A DNA stretch of 1,309 nt. It comes from Escherichia coli. Its GTDB lineage: Bacteria > Pseudomonadota > Gammaproteobacteria > Enterobacterales > Enterobacteriaceae. Positions 1 to 1,309 of the stretch are shown piece by piece. Position 1 is the stretch's first letter. Every line of letters begins with the position of its first letter. The DNA lies in assembly GCF_003334355.1 (NCBI RefSeq), contig NZ_QOWP01000089.1. The stretch is one strand, 5' to 3'. Under the pieces are notes generated by a model. It saw only the letters and a program-made list of their open reading frames with translations. It did not search any database and was not told the DNA's origin. Both the position numbers and the translations under genes were made by a program.

Positions 1-25
1 TGAACCGCCCCGGGTTTCCTGGAGA
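1..25. repeat. Terminal inverted repeat, IRR relative to transposase orientation
   Basis: Seen in sequence: positions 2-13 (GAACCGCCCCGG) are the exact reverse complement of 1298-1309, and positions 17-25 (TCCTGGAGA) are the exact reverse complement of 1286-1294. Positions 14-16 (GTT) mismatch the partner (AAA). Overall about 21 of 24 paired positions match. Position 1 (T) has no partner inside the window. Confidence 0.85.
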
Positions 26-42
26 GTGTTTTATCTGTGAAC

Positions 43-941: not shown

Positions 942-1256
942 GAGGCGGTCGAACTCCGCCTTCGCAAAATAAGCGGAAGCCTGGCGAAGGATATCGTTAC
1001 TGCGGCGCAGTTCACGATTTTCACGTTCCAGCTCTTTCAGACGCTGACGTTCAGCGCTGGTGAGCCCACCATCACCGCCCCCGGTATCCCGCTCATGCTG
1101 GCGAACCCAGACACGCAGAGTCTCCGGCGTACAGCCAATCTTTGGGGCAATGGAACAAATTGCCGCCCACTGTGAGTCATATTCATCCTGACTTTCCAGA
1201 ACCATACGAATCGCCCGCTGACGGACTTCGGGGGAAAAACGAGTATTTTTAGTCAT
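930..1256 (-). CDS. IS3-family transposase OrfA (DNA-binding / regulatory subunit; N-terminal part of the OrfAB fusion transposase)
   Basis: Seen in sequence: 108-aa ORF with ATG at 1256..1254 and TGA stop at 932..930, preceded by a Shine-Dalgarno-like AAGAGG 8 nt upstream. Protein features: a likely helix-turn-helix region around residues 28-52 ([25 protein letters not shown], about nt 1101..1175), a Gly-rich linker (DTGGGDGGL), and a heptad series L76-L83-L90-F97 (about nt 966..1031) consistent with the leucine zipper known for IS3-family OrfA proteins such as IS911 OrfA. Family assignment rests on recalled similarity. Confidence 0.9.
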
Positions 1257-1264
1257 CCTGTTTA

Positions 1265-1285: not shown

Positions 1286-1309
1286 TCTCCAGGATTTCCG
1301 GGGCGGTTC
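1286..1309. repeat. Terminal inverted repeat, IRL (upstream of orfA)
   Basis: Seen in sequence: reverse-complement partner of positions 2-25 as described for the IRR. The window ends ...CGGGGCGGTTC; a terminal A to pair with T1 (giving the usual IS3-family TG...CA termini) would lie at position 1310, just outside the window. Confidence 0.85.

Follow-up and report, generated by a model that had tools for sequence, protein, structure and literature searches.

A three-base mismatch block in the terminal inverted repeats of an IS1203/IS629 copy is a common, inherited and variable trait

A stretch of Escherichia coli DNA of 1,309 nucleotides (contig NZ_QOWP01000089.1; hereafter the window) ends in inverted repeats that match each other except at three adjacent bases, raising the question of whether the mismatch is a private mutation of this copy, a device for distinguishing the two ends, or a difference that the element tolerates. 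Direct reading of the window confirmed the bases and positions reported in an earlier sequence-only reading. Window 2–13 (GAACCGCCCCGG) is the exact reverse complement of 1298–1309, window 17–25 (TCCTGGAGA) is the exact reverse complement of 1286–1294, and between these blocks GTT at 14–16 lies opposite AAA, which is TTT at 1295–1297 on the + strand. A repeat finder returned the same arms, 2–25 and 1286–1309, as 24-nt repeats with 88% complementarity. With the ends fixed, 21 or more matches out of 24 have a probability of ~2e-10, so chance cannot account for the repeat. Three mismatches placed randomly among 24 positions would fall into one contiguous block with a probability of about 1%; the clustering is thus real and reflects a locally variable segment.

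The window contains 1309 of the 1310 bases of the element, the last base being absent. All related copies fetched continue past the right edge with an A, which pairs with T1, so the tip match is 13 bp, correcting the 12 bp counted earlier, and the complete repeat is 25 bp with 22 matches. Both transposase genes lie on the minus strand, and therefore the GTT end on the left of the window is IRR and the AAA end on its right is IRL; in what follows, left and right ends are those of the element, IRL and IRR, respectively. IRR (1–25, + strand), downstream of orfB, reads from the tip inward TGAACCGCCCCGG-GTT-TCCTGGAGA, and IRL (1286–1309, − strand), upstream of orfA, reads (T)GAACCGCCCCGG-AAA-TCCTGGAGA, with 24 of its 25 bp inside the window. 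The mismatch block thus consists of GTT at 14–16 on the + strand and of AAA on the transposase-sense strand at 1295–1297. On its outer side the tip block (1–13, paired with 1298–1309 plus the missing A) is identical at the two ends. On its inner side lies the second matching block (17–25, paired with 1286–1294).

DNA identity, profile matches and a frameshift pseudoknot identify the window as a copy of IS1203, which is an IS629 isoform and belongs to the IS3 family, in line with the sequence-only reading, which took it for an IS629-type element with imperfect repeats. Over positions 1–1309 it is 100% identical to an E. coli plasmid copy (NZ_CP045828.1) whose annotation reads 'IS3-like element IS1203 family transposase', and it is 95–97.5% (about 96%) identical to IS629-type copies. 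Similar sequence is widespread, with 4253 of 5426 complete E. coli genomes matching the window at roughly 31,000 places. The commonest IS1203 allele is represented by one copy (L015) and nine others identical to it; the sole interior difference of the window from this allele is at position 844 (sense position 467), where the window has G on the + strand, that is C in the sense direction, and the commonest allele has T. In the O157 literature the element also goes by the name IS1203v, and IS1203/IS629 are known from E. coli and Shigella. One OrfB match with 97% identity came from a Terrisporobacter mayombei contig (L131; 1110 bp, coverage 1.35) in the assembly of a Gram-positive anaerobe, where it probably reflects contamination and not true carriage of the element.

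This copy, together with its close relatives in the case of target duplications, shows every testable feature that defines the IS3 family. The terminal inverted repeats are imperfect and have 5'-TG...CA-3' ends, with TG at window 1–2 and a right edge that reads ...GGTTC plus the final A of related copies. Two consecutive frames match the IS3 transposase profile NCBIfam NF033516: orfA (930–1256, − strand; 108 aa), the N-terminal part, matches profile positions 1–86 (E 3e-11), and orfB (43–933, − strand; 296 aa), the catalytic part, matches positions 93–369 with 316 bits against a cut-off of 160. At the sequence level there is also a −1 frameshift signal, comprising an A-rich slippery run followed by a downstream RNA structure. 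The run is the A6 stretch GGAAAAAATGATG at the orfA/orfB overlap (933–938, − strand), which is likely the site of a predicted −1 frameshift, and the structure is an ALIL pseudoknot, a frameshift-stimulating RNA (859–975, − strand; Rfam RF01497, 121.5 bits, gathering score 50). RefSeq annotates copies of the element with 'programmed frameshift'. Short target duplications of 3–4 bp were found in related copies, the window itself being without flanks. For IS629 and its relatives, copy-out-paste-in transposition via a circular intermediate has been stated (bioRxiv 10.1101/2023.06.07.543989).

To place the mismatch among other copies, viral and metagenome contigs were scanned with a repeat pattern in which these three bases could vary, and the ends were sorted into left and right by the sequence just inside. 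The left-end triplets in viral contigs were GAA (56), AAA (34), GTT (3) and TAA (1), and the right-end triplets were GTT (78), TTT (8), GGT (1) and GAA (1). Metagenome contigs gave GAA (86), AAA (39) and TAA (1) on the left, and GTT (34), TTT (3) and GGT (1) on the right. Among complete elements (left/right), GAA/GTT was found 24 times and AAA/GTT, the type of the window, 17 times, followed by GAA/TTT (5), GTT/GTT (2), AAA/TTT (1) and GAA/GGT (1). The results showed that the difference at positions 15–16, left AA versus right TT, is common to most IS629/IS1203 copies, AA-type left ends making up ~97% of those sampled, while position 14 is polymorphic and A is the predominant left-end allele on the IS1203 backbone. 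In the viral-contig sample a 3-bp target duplication was intact at 25 of 48 distinct insertion sites, including 12 of 23 GAA/GTT sites. Each of the 17 AAA/GTT elements had a site of its own, and at 11 of these the 3-bp duplication was intact; elements with exactly this mismatch therefore move.

A private mutation or sequencing error of this copy is, on these data, a virtually impossible source of the mismatch. The AAA-type left end, searched as an exact 60-mer, occurs in about 1901 records among complete E. coli genomes, the whole window is 100% identical to another copy, and the 17 insertion sites in viral contigs are independent. The sequence-only reading had proposed a comparison with other copies that would class the mismatch as conserved or as private. 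It turned out to be neither: thousands of copies carry it, and the triplet is polymorphic; what stood is that the mismatch is shared. The triplet is also no clean lineage marker, a use that we ruled out because the left-end alleles AAA, GAA and GTT are scattered over backbone clades in a tree built from element interiors.

Some copies have no mismatch at all. A left-end GTT, which makes the 25-bp repeats perfect when the right end is also GTT, was found as an exact 60-mer in up to 234 records. Five of the seven left-GTT copies fetched had GTT at both ends, and a pO157 copy (L335) and a chromosomal copy (L337) had GTT on the left and TTT on the right. Copies recorded with perfect 25-bp repeats were L090, L123, L331, L332 and L336, together with L333 and L334. 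They lie at distinct sites, with target duplications such as TGC (L331) and GTAG (L334), and their backbones are either IS1203 or IS629-like, the latter with 59 differences from the window. Since perfect-repeat copies carry target duplications at several sites, the mismatch is not needed for movement. On the IS1203 backbone, the change of AAA to GTT is the sole difference from the commonest allele in 1310 bp. The pattern suggests a single templated event in which the right end was copied into the left, because the three adjacent changes match the other end exactly and nothing else is altered. An origin of the mismatch by micro-inversion of an AAAT core was rejected on inspection, as it reproduces neither allele exactly.

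The variability of these positions extends far beyond IS629/IS1203. We collected 80 loci from diverse genomes (58–77% OrfB identity) and combined them with plasmid relatives from Serratia, Edwardsiella, Iodobacter and Psychrobacter (65–79% DNA identity), yielding 55 distinct end pairs whose OrfB identity spans 58–79%. All relatives have a common template, namely TGAAYCGCNCCGG at 1–13, a variable segment at 14–20 and GGAGRC at 21–26; the GGAGA part of the inner matching block of the window belongs to this family-wide GGAGRC. Across the 55 relatives, the left and right ends disagreed at 0.275 per position within 14–20 and at 0.024 per position within 1–13 plus 21–26, a difference of ~11-fold. 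A mismatch within 14–16 was found in 25 of the 55, and many relatives have perfect repeats, in agreement with the earlier remark that asymmetry between IRL and IRR is common in the family. The variation is nevertheless restricted in kind, A or T being present at position 15 in 108 of 110 ends and at position 16 in 109 of 110. Of the 13 mismatches at position 15, 12 were A/T swaps, as were six of the seven at position 16. As for direction, at position 15 seven relatives have left T/right A and five the reverse, and at position 16 five have left T/right A and one the reverse, the IS629 arrangement being the minority. No end consistently carrying A was found across the 55 relatives.

The closest outgroups, of the Serratia and Edwardsiella type, have (G/T)TT at both ends, and the left-end AA is therefore derived. 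GTT at the IRR side of the window is the ancestral-type state, common to both ends of most relatives. The sister element L258, 81% identical, has TAA/TTT, and the AA/TT arrangement thus persists across ~19% sequence divergence.

Taken together, we regard the block as probably a tolerated, inherited polymorphism in a variable linker and not a device for distinguishing the ends. According to this reading, the two conserved blocks, the 13-bp tip TGAAYCGCNCCGG and the inner GGAGRC, would presumably be read base by base by the transposase, while the 7-bp segment between them (14–20) would be free to vary, with positions 15–16 needing only A or T. The left-end TT would have changed to AA in an ancestor of IS629/IS1203, and A for G at left-end position 14 would be a further substitution at a position that varies family-wide. 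A-T and T-A pairs are nearly alike in their minor-groove pattern. Because G and C are excluded at positions 15–16 and A and T are freely exchanged, we infer that the transposase may read this stretch by shape or minor-groove contact, in which case the two ends would be functionally equivalent despite their differing sequence. The A/T restriction itself shows that these positions are under constraint, and 'neutral' is valid only for A-to-T swaps. A literature search for binding or transposition data on these alleles, or for mutational data on IS629/IS1203 repeats, found none.

The lack of direction bears on the idea that the mismatch alters transposase affinity or geometry and thereby makes one end the preferred donor, cleaved first, and the other the recipient of the attack when figure-of-eights and circles form, as the sequence-only reading had suggested in terms of differential binding or donor-versus-target end choice. 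The precedent is IS2, in which IRL and IRR differ in sequence and length such that only IRR can serve as donor, and IRL must bend (PMC3299598). Oppositely directed A-tracts at the two ends could, moreover, change local bending, and AA-type left ends dominate the population. The decisive differences in IS2, however, are those in the outer cleavage domain and in end length. In the present element the counterpart of that domain, judged by the IS2 model (PMC3299598), is the 13-bp tip, whose sequence does not differ between IRL and IRR, and each repeat is 25 bp long. For the IS3 family at large, the same paper describes either end as a possible donor. Related elements do not share a direction of asymmetry, as the above counts for positions 15 and 16 show, and perfect-repeat GTT/GTT copies, with target duplications at new sites, are mobile. 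We thus consider a role in end choice decidedly unlikely, and this part of the earlier interpretation was not upheld.

Divergence of the ends could also be forced by transcription, if the left-end bases formed part of the element's own weak promoter or of a strong promoter assembled at the circle junction, as in IS2 and IS911. The IS2 left end has been described with promoter elements, and its junction promoter is essential (PMC3299598). However, scanning with position weights, both across the left end alone and across the right end joined to it through NNN, returned the same best candidates for AAA, GAA and GTT. These candidates were weak: none exceeded 7.2 bits, where the consensus scores 18.1, and all lay within the background of 5.3 +/- 1.6. 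The triplet always fell in the spacer and never in a hexamer, and this heuristic scan gave no left-end-specific bases acting as a promoter hexamer. A consensus scan found no sigma-70-like site in the window. A promoter role was rejected on these grounds, the candidates being unaffected by the allele, and we hold it to be highly improbable.

Several other structures at or near the repeats were inspected. A terminator-like hairpin, CCGGGTTTCCTGG followed by AGAGTGTTTT, lies at window 10–32 on the + strand and reads in from the right end, antisense to the transposase. Its stem at 10–22 with the T-run includes GTT, and a role as terminator was rejected since two such sites were found against 1.1 +/- 1.2 in shuffled sequences, which is not significant. 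A hairpin within each repeat, seen as CCGG...CCGG in many relatives, was likewise rejected: positions 12–13 are invariant and 19–20 vary freely, with no covariation. The internal 16-mer ACCGCCCCCGGTATCC (window 1074–1089, inside orfA) matches the terminal repeat core of the right end at 14 of 16 positions. It was dismissed as an internal transposase site, being absent from relatives and equalled by shuffles that reach 14/16, and is probably a chance match, or else specific to the lineage.

What stands against a tolerated swap is that the perfect-repeat allele is rare although mobile, AA-type left ends making up ~97% of sampled copies, and that AA/TT has been retained over the divergence separating L258. 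The predominance of AA could reflect an advantage of the mismatch; equally, it could reflect clonal sampling of O157-type strains. A separate reading concerns the leader RNA. In transcripts reading through the left end from outside, AUCCUG would fold back onto the start of orfA and dampen its translation; the left-specific A at position 16 would add a sixth base pair, the right end, with no such role, would keep T, and the mismatch would be a by-product of selection on the RNA. The predicted 5' arm (AUCCUG, sense positions 16–21; window 1290–1295, − strand) begins with the third base of the mismatch block, and the 3' arm (CAGGAU, sense positions 51–56; window 1255–1260, − strand) includes the A and U of the orfA AUG (1256–1254).

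RNA folding predictions gave this stem a pair probability of ~0.9 in IS1203, IS629 and the sister element L258, whereas the Serratia relative, with T at position 16, would form only five pairs, with a pairing probability of 0.65 for the start-codon A. Edwardsiella-type relatives are predicted to pair left-end positions 11–24 with the ribosome-binding region through different sequences. In distant relatives a stem joins left-end positions 24–35 to the ribosome-binding region, with 8 of its 10 pairs changed on both sides; its score was reached by 0 of 500 shuffles, and shifted registers scored much lower. In the alignment of these distant relatives (A2, L126–L210) the stem occupies columns 24–35 with 42–52, pairing the inner end of the left repeat, GGCUCCA, with the ribosome-binding region immediately upstream of the orfA AUG. 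When the alleles were swapped on 40 natural upstream flanks, the predicted energy for opening the start region rose over that of GTT by +0.67 kcal/mol for AAA and +0.57 kcal/mol for GAA, with increases in 35 of 40 and 33 of 40 flanks, respectively.

However, an effect of about 0.6 kcal/mol is small, and position 16 alone of the three takes part. The A at position 15 would face the G of AUG and pair worse than the ancestral U, and a GTA allele is predicted to do better; position 14 is not involved. The start-codon U is invariant, so covariation cannot test that pair, and T at position 16 has not kept perfect-repeat copies from spreading. At the left end, a small effect at the RNA level is possible, with one extra predicted base pair helping to hide the orfA start codon, while selection on the RNA as the origin of the mismatch appears unlikely. 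We judge quite unlikely the combined scenario in which the left-end AA is maintained by the start-codon fold-back while the right-end triplet is occasionally copied into the left by a one-step templated event. If true, the ends of IS629/IS1203 would be shaped by a tug-of-war between an RNA constraint on one end and concerted evolution between the two.

The mismatch itself matters little. It is a common, inherited, variable and ordinary trait of IS1203/IS629 and is already known. Much of the genome change in Shiga-toxin-producing E. coli is driven by IS629/IS1203, and knowing which end positions are tolerant helps in telling copies apart by type and in mini-transposon design. The family picture of two conserved blocks, a variable linker restricted to A/T at positions 15–16 and apparent occasional one-step homogenisation is a modest refinement, not a discovery; its small additions are the linker profile of the clade, the perfect-repeat copies resembling one-step conversions and the covarying leader stem.

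Compared with known systems, the window agrees with IS1203/IS629 in its 1310-bp length, TG...CA ends, 25-bp imperfect repeats, orfA/orfB frameshift and 3-bp target duplications, and there is no substantive difference apart from the missing last base and one interior base. The imperfect repeats are themselves a long-recorded property of IS1203/IS629. In quasipalindrome template-switch mutation, imperfect inverted repeats are 'corrected' in one step. The perfect-repeat copies resemble this process in that AAA has changed to the right-end state GTT with no other change; unlike in the classic cases, the IS1203 arms are ~1.3 kb apart, a much greater distance, and such an origin would be putative. 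Fold-back inhibition of transposase translation in read-through transcripts has been described for IS10 and IS50. Like these, IS1203 has a left end complementary to the translation start, and distant relatives have a covarying stem, but in IS629/IS1203 only one of the three mismatch bases participates and the predicted effect is small. With IS2 the element shares membership of the IS3 family, imperfect repeats, a two-part end with an outer cleavage and an inner binding portion, and a circle intermediate (PMC3299598; bioRxiv 10.1101/2023.06.07.543989). The two differ in that the ends of IS2 are unequal in length and in the outer cleavage domain, while those of IS1203 are equal in length and identical over the outer 13 bp, and in that the IS2 left end carries promoter elements, while the IS1203 mismatch touches no predicted promoter hexamer.
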